A stretch of 64,000 bases of DNA from Naegleria gruberi (Eukaryota), in NCBI GenBank assembly GCA_000004985.1, contig GG738891.1; one strand, 5' to 3'. Of the stretch, positions 1 to 62,777 are shown piece by piece; position 1 is the stretch's first letter; every line of letters begins with the position of its first letter. The translations under genes and the position numbers were made by a program. Under the pieces are notes generated by a model. It was not told the origin of the DNA. It searched no databases and saw only the letters and a list, made by a program, of their open reading frames with translations.

Positions 1-2026
1 CTTTTGAGAGCTTTTGATTAGCTCTTAAACCCCAACCTCTATTCTTAGTTTTAAAAACACATAATTTAACATTACTTCCTTTTTGCACAACCCTGTTGGG
101 ACAAGTTTCAGAGCACCCACAATCTCTATTGCACTCTAAAATTACATATTTTGTATCAATATCTCTTAACTTTCCACTGTTGTCGTAGTAAACTTCATCA
201 CCTCTTCTAACAGGATTGAATTGACTTGGATCAAATATGTCTGTTCTGAATTCTTGTTGAAGTCTGAGACATTTACAACCCTTTCCACACTTATTTTTAC
301 AATCACATGCTTCAGAGTTTTTAAGAGCTGCCATTACTTCTCTTTGGTCTTCTGTGATTCCTTCACCGTACGTGTTACTTGTTGCATAAGCAAATGGCTC
401 AAATTCAGAAAAATCAACTGCATTTACAACAGGTACGGCTGTCCTAGATTTACCAAGAGAAATATCATCAAAGTAGTAGAAATGAGGAGATCCTTTCTTT
501 TTTCCTAACAGCTCTGGTAAGGTTTCACCATTAATAGTCTTACTAACCATAGATCTTATATAATTAAAGTGCCTACGAATAAATCTCTTCTTATGGTTGA
601 TCAAGTCATCAATTTTGTTGCAGGGATCACTAGGGTCCCTGTTTAAATCATCGTCGTCGTCTTCGCCCTCACTGTCACTTACAGTTATTTTACCCTTATT
701 TGAAAGGAATGACTTGGAGTAAGGATATGCTGATACAGTCTTAGAAATGGCCTTGTCAATCAGCTTGTCAACGTTTTCTAGTGCTTGGTTCAAAATATTT
801 AAATCCATGGTTTCTTCAACATGGAAATTGTTGAACTCTTTCCAATTTAAAGACTTTTCCAAATCACATGCATGTCTCTTTTTTGACTTGATATACTTTT
901 TAATAACCTCTGGATCTCTTCCAAATGAAAGACACACAACGGTCAACCAGTGGACAGGCAGTCTGTCAAATACTTCATTTTTGGACAGCTCATCCAAAAC
1001 ATCCTTTTCTCGTTGAATGAGGTGTGTAGACTTTACAAGGGAACTAAATATTATCCATCTAGTATCCGTTATCACACCGATCATTTGCGATTTAAAATTA
1101 TCATAAACAATTTGAGAAACATTTTCAACTTCAATTATGCCTTGTAAAAATGAATTCAGATAAGACATGATTTGGTCGTGAAGGGCATGCTTTTGATAGT
1201 CGTCCACAACCTCCAAAGCAATTTCACAAGGAGAAGTCATAGAGTCAACTTGAATTGTTCTTTCATCATTTTCCCAATGTGTAATTGACATGTTTTTCTC
1301 TGTAGGTATTCTATACTTCATTCTGAAACCAAAATCACACCTGCTCTCTGTTATAAGAACAGGATTATTTGTGAAATACCCAATGACTGCAAAGTATTTT
1401 TGACCATCATTTCTAGGAGTACAACTTCCAAGATAGATTCCTTTAAATTCCTCAATGTAAACCTCACACAAATATTCAGTAGGATTAAATTTGTGAATTT
1501 GTTCCTTTAGTTGAAGTTTAAATCCAGAGTCACCTTCCCACTCAAACATTTCATGAATCATTTCTTTTTTAATTTCAAAGACCTCTGAGCTTGCATCTGC
1601 ACAAATGTCATAAACAGATGGAGGAATACTATTGTCCACTATAATAATATTCATAAAACTAATCATTTCCAAATACTTTTCCTTGATTTTCATTTGTAAA
1701 GGAGGAGAAATCTTGTTGTTATTACATCGGAACCCATGTCTTGTTAGCCACTCAATCGCACCAGACTTGGTAGAAAAGTTTCTACCGCTCATGTGTTCGA
1801 TCTGACTCCACAGTACGTCAATAGAAATAGCATCACCCTCCAACACTTGTAGAATAAATTTTAAAAAAGATAAAAAGTCTGGGGAATATTGAATTTTCTG
1901 TAATGCTCCACAAACATTTATATCAAATGTTGTTCGGATTGTTTTTTGCTTTTTTGTTTTAGAACCTGTTACCACAACATCAGAATCATCATCCGAACCT
2001 GATGATTGTTTGTTCCGTTTAGACAT
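1..2026 (-). CDS. SET-domain histone-lysine N-methyltransferase, SUV39/Clr4-like (partial; 3' end lies beyond the window edge)
   Basis: Uninterrupted minus-strand frame from the ATG (plus 2026..2024) to position 1, confirmed by manual translation of several segments. It is absent from the ORF track because no stop codon falls inside the window. The translation shows a pre-SET Cys cluster (CDCKNKCGKGCKC ... ECNRDCGCSETCPNRVVQKG) followed by the start of a SET domain (FKTKNRGWGLRANQ) at nt 1..60. No chromodomain is evident in the N-terminal half. Confidence 0.7.
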   Translation of the reverse strand, partial: MSKRNKQSSGSDDDSDVVVTGSKTKKQKTIRTTFDINVCGALQKIQYSPDFLSFLKFILQVLEGDAISIDVLWSQIEHMSGRNFSTKSGAIEWLTRHGFRCNNNKISPPLQMKIKEKYLEMISFMNIIIVDNSIPPSVYDICADASSEVFEIKKEMIHEMFEWEGDSGFKLQLKEQIHKFNPTEYLCEVYIEEFKGIYLGSCTPRNDGQKYFAVIGYFTNNPVLITESRCDFGFRMKYRIPTEKNMSITHWENDERTIQVDSMTSPCEIALEVVDDYQKHALHDQIMSYLNSFLQGIIEVENVSQIVYDNFKSQMIGVITDTRWIIFSSLVKSTHLIQREKDVLDELSKNEVFDRLPVHWLTVVCLSFGRDPEVIKKYIKSKKRHACDLEKSLNWKEFNNFHVEETMDLNILNQALENVDKLIDKAISKTVSAYPYSKSFLSNKGKITVSDSEGEDDDDDLNRDPSDPCNKIDDLINHKKRFIRRHFNYIRSMVSKTINGETLPELLGKKKGSPHFYYFDDISLGKSRTAVPVVNAVDFSEFEPFAYATSNTYGEGITEDQREVMAALKNSEACDCKNKCGKGCKCLRLQQEFRTDIFDPSQFNPVRRGDEVYYDNSGKLRDIDTKYVILECNRDCGCSETCPNRVVQKGSNVKLCVFKTKNRGWGLRANQKLSK

Positions 2027-48284: not shown

Positions 48285-49634
48285 TTACAAAATTGGAACA
48301 TTTTTCTGTACAAATAATTTAGAAAGTGAATCTCTTGATTTTAAAATAAATCTTTCAAGTAAAATTTGTAAATCTTGTAAAACAAAATTACATAAAGTTG
48401 TATGTAAAATTAATGAAATTCTTTCAAATCTTTCTAAAATTAATTTTAATTCTTCAATTTCTCTAATTTTACTTGTTGATGAAAATTCTTTTAATAAATC
48501 TTCATAAATTGTAATCCAATCATCAATAAAATGAATATTATTAAATACTTGTATTAACCATGGTACATATGGTCTTTCTGATGTTTCTTCTTTAGCATTT
48601 CCTTTTATAGTATTTGATATTGTTTTAAACATTGATTTACCAAATCCAAATACTTTACTTGATAAGGAAATTGATGAATCAATATTATAATTTTCATTTT
48701 CATTATTTCCTGTTGTTACTCCTGCTATTGTTGTTGCTCCTGTTGTTGCTGTTGTTGTTGTTGCTGATGATGAAGAAGATGATAAATTATCATTTTCATC
48801 ATTTTCATCATCTAAAAATAAATTAAACATATTTGGATCTTGAATTGATAAAGGTTGATTTGATTGTTGTAATTGAATATTTAAATTAATATATTTAGAT
48901 AAATCTTTTTGTAAAATTAACATGTTATTTAATAATTTATCTTGAATATTAATAACAATTCCAAAATCAATTAATTTAATATCCTTTCCATTTTTAGAAT
49001 GTATTAACATGTCAGTTTTAAAATCAGAAATATTTTCTGATAATTTTTGACAAAAATTAATTTTATGAGATTGACCAAATAATTTTGCACCTTGTTGAAA
49101 CCAAACTTTCTTACTTATATACAAATTTGGAAATAAATGTCCTCCATTTAACATTGTTTGTGATAATCTTTTAATTAACCAATATGTACGATGTCTATAT
49201 TTAGTAGGTATATCAAATTCATTTGAATATTTTGGTATTTCTTCTTCAATATATTGAAATTTATCATTAAATATTATTAACTGTTGATGATTTTCTATAT
49301 TTGTTACAATTTCATTTGGATATAAATAGTCATGTAATTCTGAATTTAATTCTTTAACACTTTTTTTAATTTTTTTATGATTTGATAAAATATTTGAAAG
49401 TGTTGAATGATTTGTATTATTATTATTATTATTAGATGTATTATTATTGGATGTAGAATTGGATGTATTATTGGATAATGTAGAATTTAAATTGGATGTA
49501 GAATTGGATATAGCAGAATTATTCAAGACTGTTGAAATAGTTTGATTATTTCCATTAGTATTATTATTATTAGATACATTTTGATTATTATTTTCAATTA
49601 CAATAAAATTATCTTCTGTTGTAATACCTTCCAC
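48285..49634 (-). CDS. Asn-rich hypothetical protein; 5' end unresolved
   Basis: The track start is a GTG. The frame is open upstream to about 49761 through an AAT-microsatellite-encoded poly-Asn region with no ATG; the first in-frame ATG is far downstream (...SQTMLNG). A folded-looking region (YPNEIVTNIENHQQLIIFNDKFQYIEEEIPKY ... PYVPWLIQVFNNIHFIDDWITIYEDLLKEF) supports coding. Confidence 0.4.
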   Translation of the reverse strand: MEGITTEDNFIVIENNNQNVSNNNNTNGNNQTISTVLNNSAISNSTSNLNSTLSNNTSNSTSNNNTSNNNNNNTNHSTLSNILSNHKKIKKSVKELNSELHDYLYPNEIVTNIENHQQLIIFNDKFQYIEEEIPKYSNEFDIPTKYRHRTYWLIKRLSQTMLNGGHLFPNLYISKKVWFQQGAKLFGQSHKINFCQKLSENISDFKTDMLIHSKNGKDIKLIDFGIVINIQDKLLNNMLILQKDLSKYINLNIQLQQSNQPLSIQDPNMFNLFLDDENDENDNLSSSSSSATTTTATTGATTIAGVTTGNNENENYNIDSSISLSSKVFGFGKSMFKTISNTIKGNAKEETSERPYVPWLIQVFNNIHFIDDWITIYEDLLKEFSSTSKIREIEELKLILERFERISLILHTTLCNFVLQDLQILLERFILKSRDSLSKLFVQKNVPIL

Positions 49635-49700
49635 TATATTACCATTATTATTATTATTATTATTAATATTATTATTAACATTCTTATTATTATTAAATTG
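49410..49700. repeat. AAT/ATT (Asn-codon) microsatellite-rich segment
   Basis: Runs of (att)n/(aat)n at about 49415..49445, 49561..49572 and 49645..49700 within and upstream of the coding frame. Confidence 0.6.
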
Positions 49701-49857
49701 TTCTTGTTGATTTAATTTAGATAAATGATTAGCTCTATCTGAATATAATTTTGAATATTTAATACTTTTTTAAATATTTGAGAAAGATATTATAACAATA
49801 AATTACATTTCTGATAAAATTGTTTTTTACAAAAAAGAAAATTAAAATAGTTTATTG

Positions 49858-50778
49858 TTAATTTGATTTTGTAATAATTGGTGAATATTGAATAGGTTGA
49901 TTATTGAGTTCAAAATTTAAATCATTTTGTTTTTGTTTAAATTCAAATCTAATAAATAATATAATTACTATAAATGTAAATAAAAATAAAATTGATAAAA
50001 TTATTAAATTAAAATTTTGATTAAAATAAAATAATAATTGATTATCATCCATATTCATAATACTACATTTATTTTTAATACAAATAGGTTTTAATTTTAA
50101 ATTACCATATATATACATATTACTATATAAATTTAAATATTCTTTTTTACAATTATTATTATTGGAATCATTTTTACATTTATAAATATCATAATTACAA
50201 ATAATATTTTTTCTATTATTATACCAATTTAAATTTAAACTTGTAAAATCATTTAAATTATTAAAATTATTTTTTAAATTATTTAATAAATAACAATATT
50301 GTTCATTACAACAATCCCATCTAAAATTTAAATTATTAACAATTAAACAATCATTATCATAATTGCAATTAAATTTATCATTTTCATATTTTTTTAATTC
50401 ATAATCAGATGGATCTCCTTTTATAGTATTTATTGTAATATCATTATATATATTTAAATCAAATGGTAATGGTTCATTAAATATTTTAGGTAATTGTGAT
50501 ATAACTGTACATTTCATTGGATATACATTTTTATTAATTAAACAATCTTTAATTGATATACATTTATAGAAATTATTAATTTGATTCGAATTTTTATAAC
50601 ATTCACTTTTTAATAATTCATTATTATTAATTAATTCCGATTGTTGTTGTTTAGATTTATTTATTAATAATAAAAATGTTATTGTTATGATGATGAATAA
50701 TAATAATAGATTTGATGATGATTTGATGATTGTTGTTGTTGGTGTAGAGTGATTTGTTCTTTGGTGGCGTGATTGCAT
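49858..50778 (-). CDS. Cys-rich type I membrane protein, hypothetical
   Basis: The first ATG (50778) gives MQSRHQRTNHSTP..., followed by a hydrophobic signal/anchor (LLLLFIIITITFLLLI), about 27 Cys in an Asn/Tyr-rich ectodomain, a C-terminal TM (LIILSILFLFTFIVIILFI) and a short tail. The track start 50832 is a TTG. Very AT-rich coding, so moderate confidence only. Confidence 0.4.
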   Translation of the reverse strand: MQSRHQRTNHSTPTTTIIKSSSNLLLLFIIITITFLLLINKSKQQQSELINNNELLKSECYKNSNQINNFYKCISIKDCLINKNVYPMKCTVISQLPKIFNEPLPFDLNIYNDITINTIKGDPSDYELKKYENDKFNCNYDNDCLIVNNLNFRWDCCNEQYCYLLNNLKNNFNNLNDFTSLNLNWYNNRKNIICNYDIYKCKNDSNNNNCKKEYLNLYSNMYIYGNLKLKPICIKNKCSIMNMDDNQLLFYFNQNFNLIILSILFLFTFIVIILFIRFEFKQKQNDLNFELNNQPIQYSPIITKSN

Positions 50779-50852
50779 TTTTTTTGTAGTGAAATGTGAC
50801 AGGAGTAAATAATTATCAAAGTAAAAAGTCAATTAAAACAGATGGGGAGGGC

Positions 50853-50857
50853 AAAAG
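50853..50857 (-). terminator. RNA polymerase III terminator T-run immediately 3' of the tRNA
   Basis: Minus-strand ...TGACTCCA|CTTTTG: a TTTT run begins 1 nt after the discriminator base. Confidence 0.45.
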
Positions 50858-50893
50858 TGGAGTCATAGGGAATCGAACCCTAGACCTTCTGCA

Positions 50894-50924
<31 letters not shown>

Positions 50925-50930
50925 AACCCC
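50858..50930 (-). tRNA. tRNA-Ala (anticodon UGC)
   Basis: Minus-strand sequence GGGGTTATAGCTCAGTTGGTAGAGCGTCTGCTTTGCATGCAGAAGGTCTAGGGTTCGATTCCCTATGACTCCA folds as a cloverleaf: 7-bp acceptor stem with the G3:U70 Ala identity pair, D arm GCTC/GAGC, anticodon stem TCTGC/GCAGA, loop TTTGCAT (anticodon TGC), T arm TAGGG/CCCTA with TTCGATT loop, discriminator A. A and B boxes are present. Confidence 0.9.
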
Positions 50931-51183
50931 TTATGTTCATTGTCCCAAAAATTCAGTATTTGACACGAAACAGAATGTGAACTAAGGAGACATTGTTGTT
51001 CGATCTTAACTGCAGTCAAGTGATCCTTTGGTTGGATCCTTCATCAAGTGTTGCTCTCTTGATATTTTTTTGGATCTTCACTGCAATATTTTTCAGCCTC
51101 TTTTCTTATTAAACGACAAGTTGCTGTAATGGTTGCCGTACAACCAACTTGAACCATTTTGAAAAAAATGAATAAATACAACA

Positions 51184-53163
51184 ATGCGTTTGTTCATACC
51201 AAATTCAACTCAAAACAAATTTCATAATACATCAACAACACTAACAATGAACAACCATGAAACTGTACTCTGTGAAGGAACTTTAGACATGTTTGATGCT
51301 CCATCTTTTACTAGCATCAATATTAGTAGTAATTCTTCATCTTCTCCGTCATCTAATTCTCCATCACTTGTTTTTCATCTTTCAACATCATCCGACTTTC
51401 AAACATCTGAACAAACCAAACAAAGTTCAAGTGGAAAAAGATCTAAATCAAAGGCAAAGAAGAGGAAAGTTATTTTGGATGAGGATGATGAACGTGATTA
51501 TGAGGAGTGTGATTTTATTTTGGAAATNNNNNNNNNNNNNNNNNNNNNNNNNNNNNNNNNNNNNNNNNNNNNNNNNNATGCTGATAGTCAGATTCCAACA
51601 ACCATTGTTCAGGCTATTTTGGATGTTGTAGCTGCTTCTATAAATCCACCACCTCAACAACCTCAACCAACACAAGAAGAACAAGCCTCCACAACTAATT
51701 CTAATGAACAAATTTCATCATCCGAAGGTATAGCTGAATCAATAACAACTAGTGATGATAATACACTTCAATCAGAACCAGCCATGCCAAAGCCTATTGA
51801 GGCTACTCAAACACCACCAACTGCAGCATCCACCATTGAAGCAAAACTTTCAAGCCAATCAACAAATAAGATTCTTGATGAACTTTATCGTGGATTGAAT
51901 ATATTCTATGATGAAGGTGCAAATGGACAATATGTACCTAGAACAATAATGGCAGATTTAGATCATTCATCACTTGATTCAATAATGTCTAATCAAGAAA
52001 TTGGTAAATGGTTTAGACCAGATTATTCATTAGGTAGTACAGGTAGTAGTGGTAATAATTGGGCTAAAGGTTATTATACAGAAGGACCTGAATTGGCAGA
52101 ATTAGTTATGGATGTTGTTAGAAAATCAGCAGAAAGTTGTGATTGTATTCAAGGATTTCAAATATTTCATTCAATTGGAGGTGGATGTGGTTCAGGAATG
52201 GGATGTTTCATAACAAATAGACTTCAAGATGAATATGGTGGTGCAATGATTATGACAAATTCTGTATTTCCATCTACAAAAACTGTTGATAGTGTTCTTG
52301 CACCTTATAACTCTGTTTTAACTTTACATCACTTGATTGAAAATGTTCAAATGGTTAATTGTTTTGATAATCATGCTCTTAATCAAATTAGTCAAAAATT
52401 ATTTAGAATTGAATCACCTGAAATGGTTGATTTGAATGAAATTGTTGCACAATCTGTTACAGGTATGTTGTTTTATAGAATGATTATGATGACATTTAAA
52501 TCATTATTAATATACTATTAAGGTATTACAAGTTCATTTAGATTTTCAGGTATTATAAATTCAGATTTACGTAAAATGGCAACCAATTTAGTTCCATTTC
52601 CAAGAGCTCACTTTTTCATGAATTCATTATCACCATTAGGAAGTTCATTTGATAATTCAGATCTTAAAGTTGAACAAATTACAAGTCAATTATTTAATCC
52701 AAATCATTTCCTAGTTGATGCCAATCCAAAGAATGGTAAATATTTAACAGCAAGTGTTATATTTAGAGGAGATGTTAGTTCATCATCAGCAGAAGAACAA
52801 GTTAATGGTATTCTTCAAAGAGATTCTTCTTACTTTTACAAATCAATTCCAAATAATTTACAAACTTCTATATGTAAAGTTGCACCACCTGGTATTAAGA
52901 GAACAGGAACTTTAATTGCTAATTCTACTTCTATTTTAACTATATTTAGACAATTATCATCTTCATTCTCAATGTTATTTAAGAGAAAGGCTTTTATGAA
53001 ATCATTTGAAATTGAAGGAATGGATGAATTGGAATTTTCAGAAGCAATTTCAAATCTTAATGATTTAATAGCTGAATATGAATTACAAGAATATGAACAA
53101 GATAATCATATTAATGTTGATGATGAAGAATTGGGAGGAGGAGAATCTGAACATGTTGAATAA
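51184..53163 (+). CDS. Divergent beta-tubulin-like protein with a Ser/Thr/Pro/Gln-rich N-terminal extension, interrupted by a scaffold gap
   Basis: Model join(51184..51527, gap, 51578..52462, 52523..53163); 60-nt intron gtatgt..ttaag in phase 1 gives ...SVTG|ITSSFRFSGIINSDLRKMATNLVPFPRAHFF, collinear with beta-tubulin [32 protein letters not shown]. The tubulin body is recognisable from about beta residue 45 (LNIFYDEGANGQYVPRTIMADLD...GSSGNNWAKGYYTEGPELAELVMDVVRKSAESCDCIQGFQIFHSIGGGCGSGMG ... RKAFMKSFEIEGMDELEFSEAISNLNDLIAEYELQEYEQD). The N-terminal GQCGNQ T1-loop region is absent. The GGGTGSG signature reads GGGCGSG. Confidence 0.7.
51528..51577. other. Assembly gap (50 N) inside the tubulin-like gene
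   Basis: Run of n characters. The true length is unknown, so the N-terminal exon structure cannot be fixed. Confidence 0.95.
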
Positions 53164-53419
53164 AATAGTTTAATAGGTGTAATTATATAATATGTTAATA
53201 TGATTGATATTTGTAATTTGGAAGATTTCATGAATTAAACACATTTTGATTGAATTTTTTGGCAAAGTTATCTGTCAAACCCCAATCAACAAATTCGAAA
53301 CAAAAGTTCGCACCAAGAACGATAACTTCATAGTCAGAACCGTGCCGGTTCTAACTACCAAATAAACAAACACTATTTTGATTGAATTTTTATTTGAACA
53401 AAATTAAAAAATTAAAAAC

Positions 53420-54061
53420 ATGACATCTTCGACTACAAGTAATAATAATAACACAAGTAATGATCATTCAACATCAACAACAACAAATAATGAAGAATAT
53501 GATTTATATAAACATTCAATTGTTAGATATTTAGGATATACTAATGAAGTTGGTGAAGCCTTTAGAAGTTTTCTACCAAAATCAATTGTTAATTTTACAT
53601 ATATTGTTGCATCGGGATATGCTCTAGCTGATGCTGTTGATAAAGGTTATAAACAATATAAATTACAATCTAATAATAATATTACATCAAATATTGATAA
53701 TAATAATATTGACAATATTAATAATATTAATAATATTGATACTAATAATTTAACAAAATCATCAACAACAATTAATTATAAACCAATTATTCATCATACA
53801 AGTGATACATTAATATGGCAATTTTTTGCATCAGTAACAATTCCAGCCTTTTTTGTAAATAGAACATGTTCAATAGTTAAATATTCAATGAATAGAATGA
53901 ATTTAAGTGAAGGCTTTAAAAGATCAATTTATTTCAAATCAATTCCAACATTGAGTGGATTAGCAATCATTCCATTCCTACCACTATTATTAGATCATCC
54001 AATTGATTTAATTTTAGATAAAACCACTAGACCTTTATTAAATAAATATTTAAAAGATTAA
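53420..54061 (+). CDS. mtfp1: Mitochondrial fission process protein 1 (MTFP1/MTP18 family)
   Basis: 213 aa. IVRYLGYTNEVGEAFRSFLPKSIVNFTYIVASGYALADAVDKGYK ... TLIWQFFASVTIPAFFVNRTCSIV ... LAIIPFLPLLLDHPIDLILDKT is collinear with MTP18. An Asn-rich insertion (NIDNNNIDNINNINNIDTNN) splits the two conserved halves. Confidence 0.75.
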   Translation: MTSSTTSNNNNTSNDHSTSTTTNNEEYDLYKHSIVRYLGYTNEVGEAFRSFLPKSIVNFTYIVASGYALADAVDKGYKQYKLQSNNNITSNIDNNNIDNINNINNIDTNNLTKSSTTINYKPIIHHTSDTLIWQFFASVTIPAFFVNRTCSIVKYSMNRMNLSEGFKRSIYFKSIPTLSGLAIIPFLPLLLDHPIDLILDKTTRPLLNKYLKD

Positions 54062-54441
54062 ACCATAATTAATTATTTTAATTTATTTTTTTATATTTAT
54101 TAAATTTAATATTCTAATGTAAATAGATGGGAATATCAATATTCTTTATGAGATGTGAAAATCATCTCTCTATGGCGCTCAATGGTGTCTTTAATATATT
54201 TGTTTAACATAAATAAAATTATTGAAGACTTATGAGGTCAGGCTTACTGAAAGGTTGGCAATGTTACGTTCAAGGATGAGAGGACATTGGTATTCTTTTT
54301 ATATTATTATTTATTTTTCTTATTATTGTTTATTAAGGAAGATTAAAATGCTATACGTAACTTGAACCATAACTTGTTTTATAAATTTATTAAAAATAAT
54401 TTCATGTTCATTTTGAACATTGATTAGGTTATGGAGATATT

Positions 54442-54666
54442 TCATTTATTAGTGAAATCTATAAACTCATTAATGTATGTCTGCATTGAGTGGAATACTG
54501 AGGCTATATTAAATAGCAATGTGTTAAGATGTGTAGAGGTAATTAATTCATGAAATGTCTCTTTTTTTAACATCAAATCATAAAAGATTACATCTACATG
54601 AGTCATGCCCACTATTCTCTTTATTTCTTTTGAAATAAAATGTGAAATTGTAAAGTCAAAGTCCAT
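54442..54666 (-). CDS. Small hypothetical protein (74 aa)
   Basis: ATG-initiated ORF of non-low-complexity sequence in an otherwise empty 700-bp spacer. No confident homology; a faint TFB5/p8-like D-THxxV pattern only. Confidence 0.2.
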   Translation of the reverse strand: MDFDFTISHFISKEIKRIVGMTHVDVIFYDLMLKKETFHELITSTHLNTLLFNIASVFHSMQTYINEFIDFTNK

Positions 54667-60959: not shown

Positions 60960-62777
60960 ATGACAAGTGACAGTGGTGCATTGAGTACTTCATCTGTTTC
61001 TTCAACAATAGTTGATACAAATAATATTAATAATACAGTTAATACAAGACAACAACAATTAAATAATAATAATACTAATCCATATGGATCATCACAAAGA
61101 TTAGCACATTCACATCATCCACGTGTTCATCATCCTCATAATATTCATCATCATAATAATAATAATATACGTAAAGTTATGAGTCAATTAAGTATTAATA
61201 GTCAACAACAACAACAACAACAATATAATAGTAATGAACAATTATCATCTCTATATAGTATTGATAATAATAATATTATTAACATGTCTTCTAATAATAA
61301 TTTAAATAATTTGAATAATAATAATTTGAATAATAATAGAATTCATTCAGCACAATCATTTAGTTCACTTTCATCTTATTATAGAGATGATGAACATCCA
61401 CAACAACGTCATGTTCATTATTTTGATAGTGATGAATTTGATCAACATTTATATCCACCACCAATAATAATAATAATAATAATATACTTACTAAGAATGG
61501 TAAAAATAATGTTCATTTTGATACTAATGAAGATGATGAACAAGGACATTATCATGGTCATCATCATGAACATGAATTAGATGATAATCATCATCATCAT
61601 ATTATTGATCATCACCATGACCATCATCACCATCATCATCATGAAGATGATCATTGTGCTCATACTACTACCAATAATAATAATACTATTAAAAGTAGTA
61701 ATACTTGTTGTGGTGGTGAAGAAAATCCAATTATTGTTGGTAAATATCATCCAACAACAATGAACAAATCACCTCAATTAATTGAACATGAAGCGCAACT
61801 ACATGAACAACATGAACAATCCATCAATAATAGAAAAGAAAGAAATCCCTTAAACAATATTTCAACAAGAATATTAGGATTGAAGTGNNNNNNNNNNNNN
61901 NNNNNNNNNNNNNNNNNNNNNNNNNNNNNNNNNNNNNTTTGTATCAATTGGTACTTTATTATCTGCTCTAATTTCATCTGATATTACTACTAAATCATTA
62001 CAAAAATTTATGATTGGTATTGCATTTGTTGGTGCATTTACAATGATTATATTTAGTAAGAGTATTCTATTTACAGAAGTTAACATATCTGTTAGTGTAC
62101 ATTTATTTAAAAATGATTTAATTGGTATTTTTAGAAGAAGTATATATTGGTTATTTAATAATATATTTACTTGTTTTAAAAATCATTTACATATTAAAAT
62201 TAGAAGACCACATAAGAGTATTAAATTAATGACATTATTAAATTCTATTAAATTATGGAGTATAGCTATATTTGGTAATATATTAGGTACAATATTAATG
62301 TCAGCAATATTATCAGGTAGTTATGTATGGTATGATAATCAAAGTGTTATTCAATTTTTAAGTTCAACAACTAAACATAAAATTCATACATTTGAAGAGA
62401 GAGGTGTTAATGGATGGTTTAGTTGTTTATTAAGTGGAATGGTTGCTAATTTCATGATTGGTGTTGCTACTTTATTATGTTCTTCTGGTACTACTATTAT
62501 TGGTAAAATTATTGCTTTATTCTTTCCAATTATAGCATTTGCTGCATTAGGTGTACAACATGCACCTGCTAATGTTGGTTATTTTTCTCATATTTTCATT
62601 TGGGATTCTTTATATGGTTCAACTAGTAATATTACAATGACAAGTGAAATTAATTTTGTAATGAATGAAATTCAATGGTATGAATCTATTTATTGGAATT
62701 TAATTCCAGCTGCACTTGGTAATGCTTTGGGTGCTGTCTTTTTAGCTTTTATATTTGTTTTTATTTTTGTTAAATAA
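60960..62777 (+). CDS. Formate/nitrite transporter family protein (FNT), copy 2 (tandem paralogue): intronless, interrupted by a frameshift and a scaffold gap; possibly a pseudogene or an assembly error
   Basis: ATG at 60960 (track start 60948 is a TTG). Frame 0 up to about 61465, including the motif DEFDQHLYPP. The reading frame then shifts into a His-rich stretch (HYHGHHHEHELDDNHHHHIIDHHHDHHHHHHHEDDH) that runs to the N gap (61888..61937). After the gap the FNT body (62010..62777 in the track) is 80-90% identical to copy 1 and reads through FFPIIAFAALGVQHAPANVGYF without an intron. Confidence 0.55.
61540..61665 (+). repeat. CAT/CAC (His-codon) microsatellite-like tract
   Basis: catcatcatgaacatgaa...catcatcatcatattattgatcatcaccatgaccatcatcaccatcatcatcatgaagat, encoding a poly-His/Asp tract in FNT copy 2. 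Confidence 0.6.
61888..61937. other. Assembly gap (50 N) inside FNT copy 2
   Basis: Run of n characters. The frame changes across it, as expected for an arbitrary-length gap. Confidence 0.95.

Follow-up and report, generated by a model that had tools for sequence, protein, structure and literature searches.

Naegleria gruberi has nine genes for beta-tubulin, and a number of these are highly divergent (PMC9036621). Five "bonus" beta-tubulins of this organism, as summarised from the genome paper by Fulton in 2022 (PMC9081340), share at best ~60% with the flagellar genes and contain "gaps and additions"; that summary judges them unlikely to assemble microtubules and poses their role as an open question. 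Ciliates also have divergent beta-like tubulins, formerly called theta and iota, which cluster basally in beta-tubulin together with sequences from N. gruberi (PMC4202323). The H1-S2 loop of tubulin projects from the inner face of the microtubule and accommodates engineered inserts; full-length folded GFP placed at the same site is not tolerated (PMC11361732). Natural inserts in apicomplexan alpha-tubulins measure 2-7 residues (PMC10056924).

Here we examine a beta-tubulin gene in a 64,000-nucleotide stretch of N. gruberi contig GG738891.1 (assembly GCA_000004985.1), hereafter the window. An initial annotation, made from the sequence alone, saw in it a beta-tubulin paralogue that had lost its GTP-binding N-terminus. 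Comparison with a syntenic relative indicates that the locus is very probably a full-length, highly diverged N. gruberi beta-tubulin paralogue (XP_002673357.1), the first 31 codons of which lie in an assembly gap.

Results

A beta-tubulin gene that adjoins an assembly gap

Translation of the window yields a beta-tubulin-like coding sequence on the plus strand that runs from the edge of a gap (51578) to a TAA at 53161..53163. Its product is 100% identical to the NCBI entry "beta-tubulin [Naegleria gruberi]" (EFC40613.1 / XP_002673357.1 / D2VRJ5), which is placed on a 339-kb scaffold. The public model XP_002673357.1 (P0001) has 439 aa and begins MPKPIEATQ, at the first Met after the gap; this start is artificial, and the database entry is cut short by the 50-N gap. 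The features of the locus are as follows, L001 being the metagenome contig described below.

50857..50930, minus strand: tRNA-Ala(TGC), neighbouring gene and synteny anchor with L001 (ARAGORN; Rfam tRNA, 72 bits)
51079..51527, plus strand: 449 bp left of the gap, without counterpart in L001, holding an orphan ORF
51184..51527, plus strand: the orphan ORF, 114 codons, Ser/Thr-rich, with a KRSKSKAKKRK (NLS-like) patch
51528..51577, no strand: assembly gap of 50 N, in which the promoter and 91 nt or more of coding sequence would lie
51578..52462, plus strand: sequenced part of exon 1, comprising the last two bases of codon 31 and the GTPase domain to ...AQSVT(G) (translation, PDB alignment)
51580..51888, plus strand: H1-S2 loop insertion, 103 residues, ADSQIPTT...ILDELY (alignment of P0002, the product of L001; AlphaFold2; open frame)
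52463..52522, plus strand: intron, 60 nt, GT..AG (GTATGT...TTAAG)
52523..53163, plus strand: exon 2, with a beta-type T7 loop (NSDLRK), a short M-loop, the C-terminal domain and a weakly acidic tail before the TAA (Pfam Tubulin_C, alignments)

The product of exon 1 is identical to P0001 from the first Met of that model onward. Removal of the intron joins ...AQSVTG to ITSSFRFSGIINSDLRK..., giving a sequence that aligns collinearly with beta-tubulin and agrees exactly with the NCBI model, and the intron is kept in L001 with three substitutions. Both the GTPase domain and the C-terminal domain of the tubulin superfamily were recognised by Pfam, above the gathering score in each case (Tubulin, PF00091, 2e-44, over profile positions 19-189 only; Tubulin_C, PF03953, 3e-26), and Foldseek agrees with this membership. 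The best 60 matches among solved structures are all beta-tubulin chains (E ~1e-121 to 1e-117), with alignments that span chain residue 45 to the C-terminus, and nearly all of the named proteins among the best database matches are beta-tubulins. Judged from its sequence, the gene resembles beta-tubulins more than it does alpha- or gamma-tubulins along its full length. The assignment to the beta family in the initial annotation was correct, and the motifs it quoted (GGGCGSGMG, NNWAKGYYTEGPEL, RKMATNLVPFPRAHFF and RKAFMKSFEIEGMDELEFSEA) are all present. A tblastn search of the window's sequenced part found no second tubulin gene. An annotation of this gene already exists, and its class has already been remarked on in the literature.

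Downstream on the plus strand (53420..54061) is an ORF of 213 aa for an MTP18/MTFP1-like mitochondrial fission protein (Pfam PF10558, 1e-23) that carries an Asn-rich low-complexity insert. Two long Asn-rich ORFs of 449 and 324 aa occupy the minus strand at 48285..49634 and 49858..50832, and neither has a Pfam match.

The N-terminus is present in a syntenic relative

A search of 5.8 billion proteins returned only one other close relative, P0002, which is encoded by a 1,944-bp contig of an ENA metagenome assembly (ERZ929261 k127_448219; L001). At the DNA level L001 606..1944 is 98.2% identical to window 51578..52904, and L001 1..308 is 90% identical to window 50774..51078, including the minus-strand tRNA-Ala(TGC). 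Since L001 matches both the gene and the tRNA-Ala flank, it comes from a closely related strain and represents this very locus. The L001 ORF starts at position 515, and 515..605 encodes 30 residues plus the first base of codon 31 (D); position 606, the second base of that codon, aligns to window 51578. The encoded start reads MREI..., with a T1 loop of GNCGNQ (vs GQCGNQ) and helix H1. Strand S1, the T1 loop and H1 are thus contiguous with the first post-gap codon, uninterrupted by an intron and within 91 nt upstream of it.

Within the window, the apparent 5' loss of the gene coincides with the assembly gap, and a tblastn search of all sequenced parts detected nothing that would encode tubulin residues 1-31. 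Neither the MREI start nor the T1 motif GQCGNQ is therefore seen in the window; the 98%-identical syntenic relative has the latter as a Q-to-N variant. By comparison with L001, the gap would hide the ATG, codons 1-30 and the first base of codon 31, that is, S1, the T1 loop and H1. Because 91 nt of coding sequence are missing upstream of 51578, the gap cannot literally be 50 nt long. A second assembly gap in the window (61888..61937) likewise consists of exactly 50 N, which shows that this length was not measured but stands as a placeholder. Genes that adjoin this second gap may be mis-modelled too.

The apparent loss of the GTP-binding N-terminus is therefore, with high probability, an artefact of the assembly gap; some doubt is left because the N-terminus is seen only in the relative and because the two strains do not match on the left side of the gap. 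The claim that the paralogue has no T1 loop and could not bind GTP conventionally is not supported, given the T1-bearing start directly upstream of the first post-gap codon in L001. Another suggestion of the initial annotation, that a missing exon lies in the 50-N gap, comes closer: placement of the missing part in the gap is supported, although the start in L001 is contiguous coding sequence rather than a separate exon. The sequence that it expected to overturn its own claim, a GQCGNQ-type motif within the gap, was found indirectly, through L001 and not in this strain.

Sequence left of the gap

Homology to L001 is ~90% along the tRNA-Ala flank out to 51078 and breaks sharply at 51078/51079, a point ~150 bp away from the tRNA-Ala gene's 5' end. 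The 449 bp beyond this point have no other copy within the window, and the orphan ORF they contain has no homologue at E<=1e-3 among the 5.8 billion proteins; from the lack of a protein match it follows that this is neither a known gene nor an annotated repeat family. A scan of 49500..54500 with Rfam returned the tRNA only. The segment 51079..51527 is not part of the tubulin; it is probably a strain-specific insertion, or an indel that runs into the gap, and it may be what caused the assembly to break here. The single 640-codon ORF that had been read from 51184 arises only by translating through the 50 Ns, as the frames on either side coincide by chance. What had been described as an N-terminal extension of ~200 aa is thereby divided: its left piece is the unrelated orphan ORF, and its right ~103 residues are an insertion in an internal loop and not a replacement of the N-terminus.

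A long insertion in the H1-S2 loop

In P0002, residues 1-32 align to beta-tubulin residues 1-32 and residues 140-331 to beta-tubulin residues 46-236. Between these blocks, 103-107 residues replace ~13 of canonical beta-tubulin, a net gain of ~90 aa that includes the segments IPTTIVQAILDVVAASINPPPQQPQPTQEEQ... and LSSQSTNK. The length differences between the window and L001 amount to two indels of 6 nt each, both in frame.

An AlphaFold2 model of P0002, computed with 44 other aligned sequences, has a mean pLDDT of 72 and normal S1, H1 and GTPase core. Foldseek searches with this model gave beta-tubulin chains for all of the top 50 hits (probability 1.00). Within the insertion, an extra helix is predicted at residues 38-52 (pLDDT ~80), and further helices span 117-124 and 130-144 and lead on to S2; between them is a Pro/Gln/Ser/Thr-rich stretch in which pLDDT falls below 50 over residues 69-115, with ~65 residues predicted to be disordered. 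The insertion is probably translated because the frame is open in two strains, the 6-nt indels are in frame and no candidate in-frame donor resembles that of the gene's real intron. It is a modest but real curiosity of this gene.

Alternative explanations of the locus

The difference between the strains on the left side of the gap could mean that the NEG-M gene is truly 5'-truncated or chimeric. An insertion or rearrangement with its left edge at 51079 would then have displaced the promoter and the first 31 codons and left a T1-less fragment, either non-functional or neofunctionalised, with or without a fusion to the upstream ORF. In keeping with this, window 51079..51527 has no counterpart in L001, L001 309..605 has none in the window, and a gap of literally 50 nt could not hold the missing 91 nt. 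Yet the match to L001 extends to the very edge of the gap, which cuts through a codon just as a contig that ends at an arbitrary point would, and the identical size of both window gaps takes the force from the argument about length. The left ORF has neither homologue nor annotation, whereas the ORF downstream of the gap is intact and 99% conserved. We consider a true truncation quite unlikely.

Two further possibilities concern the gene on the right side of the gap, and both appear very improbable. If the ~300-nt low-complexity segment were an unrecognised intron, the mature beta-tubulin would be of normal length, and in-frame GT..AG pairs do exist (for example, L001 635..910). However, no candidate donor matches the GTATGT of the gene's clear intron, both indels are multiples of three, and the 103-107 codons are free of in-frame stops in two strains where the other two frames contain 5 and 15. 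The real 60-nt intron, by comparison, has an in-frame stop, and the read-through ending of P0002 terminates inside it. The second possibility, also raised in the initial annotation, is a beta-tubulin copy in decay as a pseudogene. Its extreme divergence, with 60/192 near-invariant positions changed (see below), would fit decay, as would the failure to find an orthologue outside the N. gruberi lineage and the excess or parity of nonsynonymous over synonymous changes between strains; the seven codons that differ between window and L001 (four nonsynonymous, three synonymous) are too few for a selection test. Against this, ~55% amino-acid divergence has accumulated with no stop or frameshift in ~610 codons, the ORF is intact in both strains, where the only indels leave the frame undisturbed, the splice sites are intact and loops T1-T7 are still recognisable. 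Coding DNA of L001 and the window is also ~99% identical, where the intron reaches 95% and the 5' flank ~90%. The full-length, diverged paralogue with its start in the gap remains our preferred reading, and the failure to find an orthologue beyond the lineage would fit a gene that evolves fast and has a marginal function.

One difference between the strains is clustered: four nucleotides differ between L001 1597..1602 and window 52597..52602 (TTTCCA vs TTCTGG), and the near-invariant PFPR becomes PFWR in the metagenome relative. Either an error in the assembly or a genuine change of several nucleotides could account for it.

Divergence from canonical beta-tubulin

Local alignment of the reconstructed protein gave identities of 44.6% to pig beta-tubulin, 45.5% to the yeast protein, 45.9% to the N. 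gruberi flagellar protein and 42-45% to the two mitotic beta-tubulins. We also defined 192 near-invariant alignment columns, conserved at >=95% in 43 diverse beta-tubulins. The gene has changed 60 of these positions; the mitotic betas have changed 13-20, and the pig, yeast and Naegleria flagellar proteins none.

The strongest changes fall outside the nucleotide-binding elements. The loops that contact nucleotide are recognisable (T1 GNCGNQ, from the relative; T3 GNNWAKG; T4 GGGCGSG; T6 PYN; T7 NSDLRK), and T1-T6 are kept with the conservative changes Q11N and T145C. The latter turns the T4 signature GGGTGSG into GGGCGSG, a Thr-to-Cys replacement at a position that is >=95% conserved in the 43 canonical beta-tubulins. 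T7 is of the beta type, with Lys in place of the catalytic Glu254 of alpha-tubulin (NSDLRKMATNLVPFPR in the alignment), and the S9-S10 region has no insert relative to beta-tubulin, the alpha-type 8-residue insert being absent. In H7 the base-stacking Tyr is replaced by Met. The M-loop is two residues shorter and unconserved, HWYTGEGMDE has become KSFEIEGMDE (HWY to KSF before EGMDE), and the C-terminal tail is mildly acidic. Taken over the near-invariant residues, the usually short H1-S2 loop and the M-loop, the protein does not have the character of a canonical lattice isotype, with 60/192 positions changed and ~90 extra residues.

Relatives within and beyond Naegleria

Neither word-indexed nor exhaustive HMMER searches found an orthologue outside the N. 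gruberi lineage, in N. fowleri or in other heteroloboseans; after P0001 and P0002, both return canonical beta-tubulins at ~45% identity. The entries that seemed to score better are mis-assemblies: in P0121 a segment of a canonical beta-tubulin has been duplicated, while P0122 and P0137 each combine alpha- and beta-tubulin as chimeras. Membership of the mitotic beta-tubulin clade was likewise rejected, given the 42-45% identity and the absence of any orthologue scoring above canonical beta-tubulin.

A scan of JGI metagenomes with the N-terminus and the insertion recovered only one contig, L002, an unrelated sequence that matched through its QIGNCGNQ pattern. L002 (Ga0100380_10097878, positions 1..1806) is a single-gene contig of 1.8 kb with CCCCAAT-type end repeats, like a gene-sized chromosome. 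It encodes a divergent 454-aa beta-tubulin of an unrelated organism that also has a GNCGNQ T1 loop, has 43/192 near-invariant positions changed and carries a 13-residue insert aligned just after PPRGLK.

The gene is most probably a member of the "bonus" tubulin set. The papers PMC9036621 and PMC9081340 and their supplements do not describe its accession, N-terminus or insertion, and no link from the gene to a JGI identifier, a tree position or expression data was found in them; the Velle 2022 supplements and papers contain no match to the accession or to the sequence motifs.

Discussion

The predicted fold and the retained loops suggest that the protein folds as a tubulin and would bind GTP at an exchangeable site of the beta type. 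Its lateral contacts appear to be remodelled, through the H1-S2 insertion and the unconserved M-loop, and part of the longitudinal surface may be as well, through the change of HWY to KSF. Most likely the protein does not act as a bulk lattice subunit. Our best guess is a low-abundance, fast-evolving, lineage-specific accessory isotype, which could have one of the genome's equally divergent alpha-tubulins as its partner. Were it incorporated into a microtubule, the insertion would project into the lumen. More specific proposals are unlikely to be right: that the gene is an expressed, lineage-restricted beta-tubulin built into a subset of microtubules, such as basal-body or axonemal ones, in which the insertion acts as a luminal "inner protein", or that its product is a GTP-binding, non-polymerising partner or regulator of a divergent alpha-tubulin.

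The case has a practical side in that XP_002673357.1 / D2VRJ5 taken at face value, or the raw scaffold, would lead to a P-loop-less tubulin being wrongly inferred. The gene also counts among the extremely divergent, uncharacterised tubulins of Naegleria, which are of relevance to the multi-tubulin hypothesis. Should its product be made and assemble, the limits of what the H1-S2 loop can accommodate would become apparent, as a natural insertion of ~90 residues far exceeds both the 2-7-residue apicomplexan inserts and the engineered inserts tested so far.

Canonical beta-tubulins (pig TBB, yeast Tub2 and N. gruberi flagellar JGI 83350) share with the protein the same two-domain fold and, when the start is taken from the L001 relative, are collinear with it from residue 1 to the C-terminus. 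So reconstructed, it is like them in its MREI start, its recognisable T1-T6 loops, its T7 Lys and the absence of the alpha-specific S9-S10 insert, and unlike them in its identity of only ~45%, the 60/192 changed positions, Q11N and T145C, the ~90-aa insertion, the shorter M-loop, KSF and the weakly acidic tail. The Naegleria mitotic beta-tubulins (JGI 55748 and 55900) are also divergent beta paralogues of the same organism, but they are 62-66% identical to canonical beta-tubulin, whereas the gene reaches 42-45% with the mitotic pair itself, and they have orthologues in N. fowleri and Acrasis and lack the H1-S2 insertion (PMC9036621). The highly divergent "bonus" alpha- and beta-tubulins (Fritz-Laylin 2010, as relayed in PMC9081340; PMC9036621) belong to the same genome, and the gene, itself annotated as beta-tubulin, resembles them in its "gaps and additions" and in being far more divergent than the flagellar or mitotic sets.

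Outside Naegleria, the ciliate beta-like tubulins resemble the gene in their long branches, and some have been proposed to be structural rather than polymerising (PMC4202323). Four of them, in Paramecium, have truly lost the P-loop (PMC4202323), whereas L001, the relative of the Naegleria gene, retains it. The engineered H1-S2 inserts (His tags, and GFP11 with linkers; PMC11361732) occupy the same site, a variable loop of the luminal face; these are artificial and 17-48 residues long, whereas the Naegleria insert is natural, runs to ~90 residues and is predicted to be disordered for the most part.
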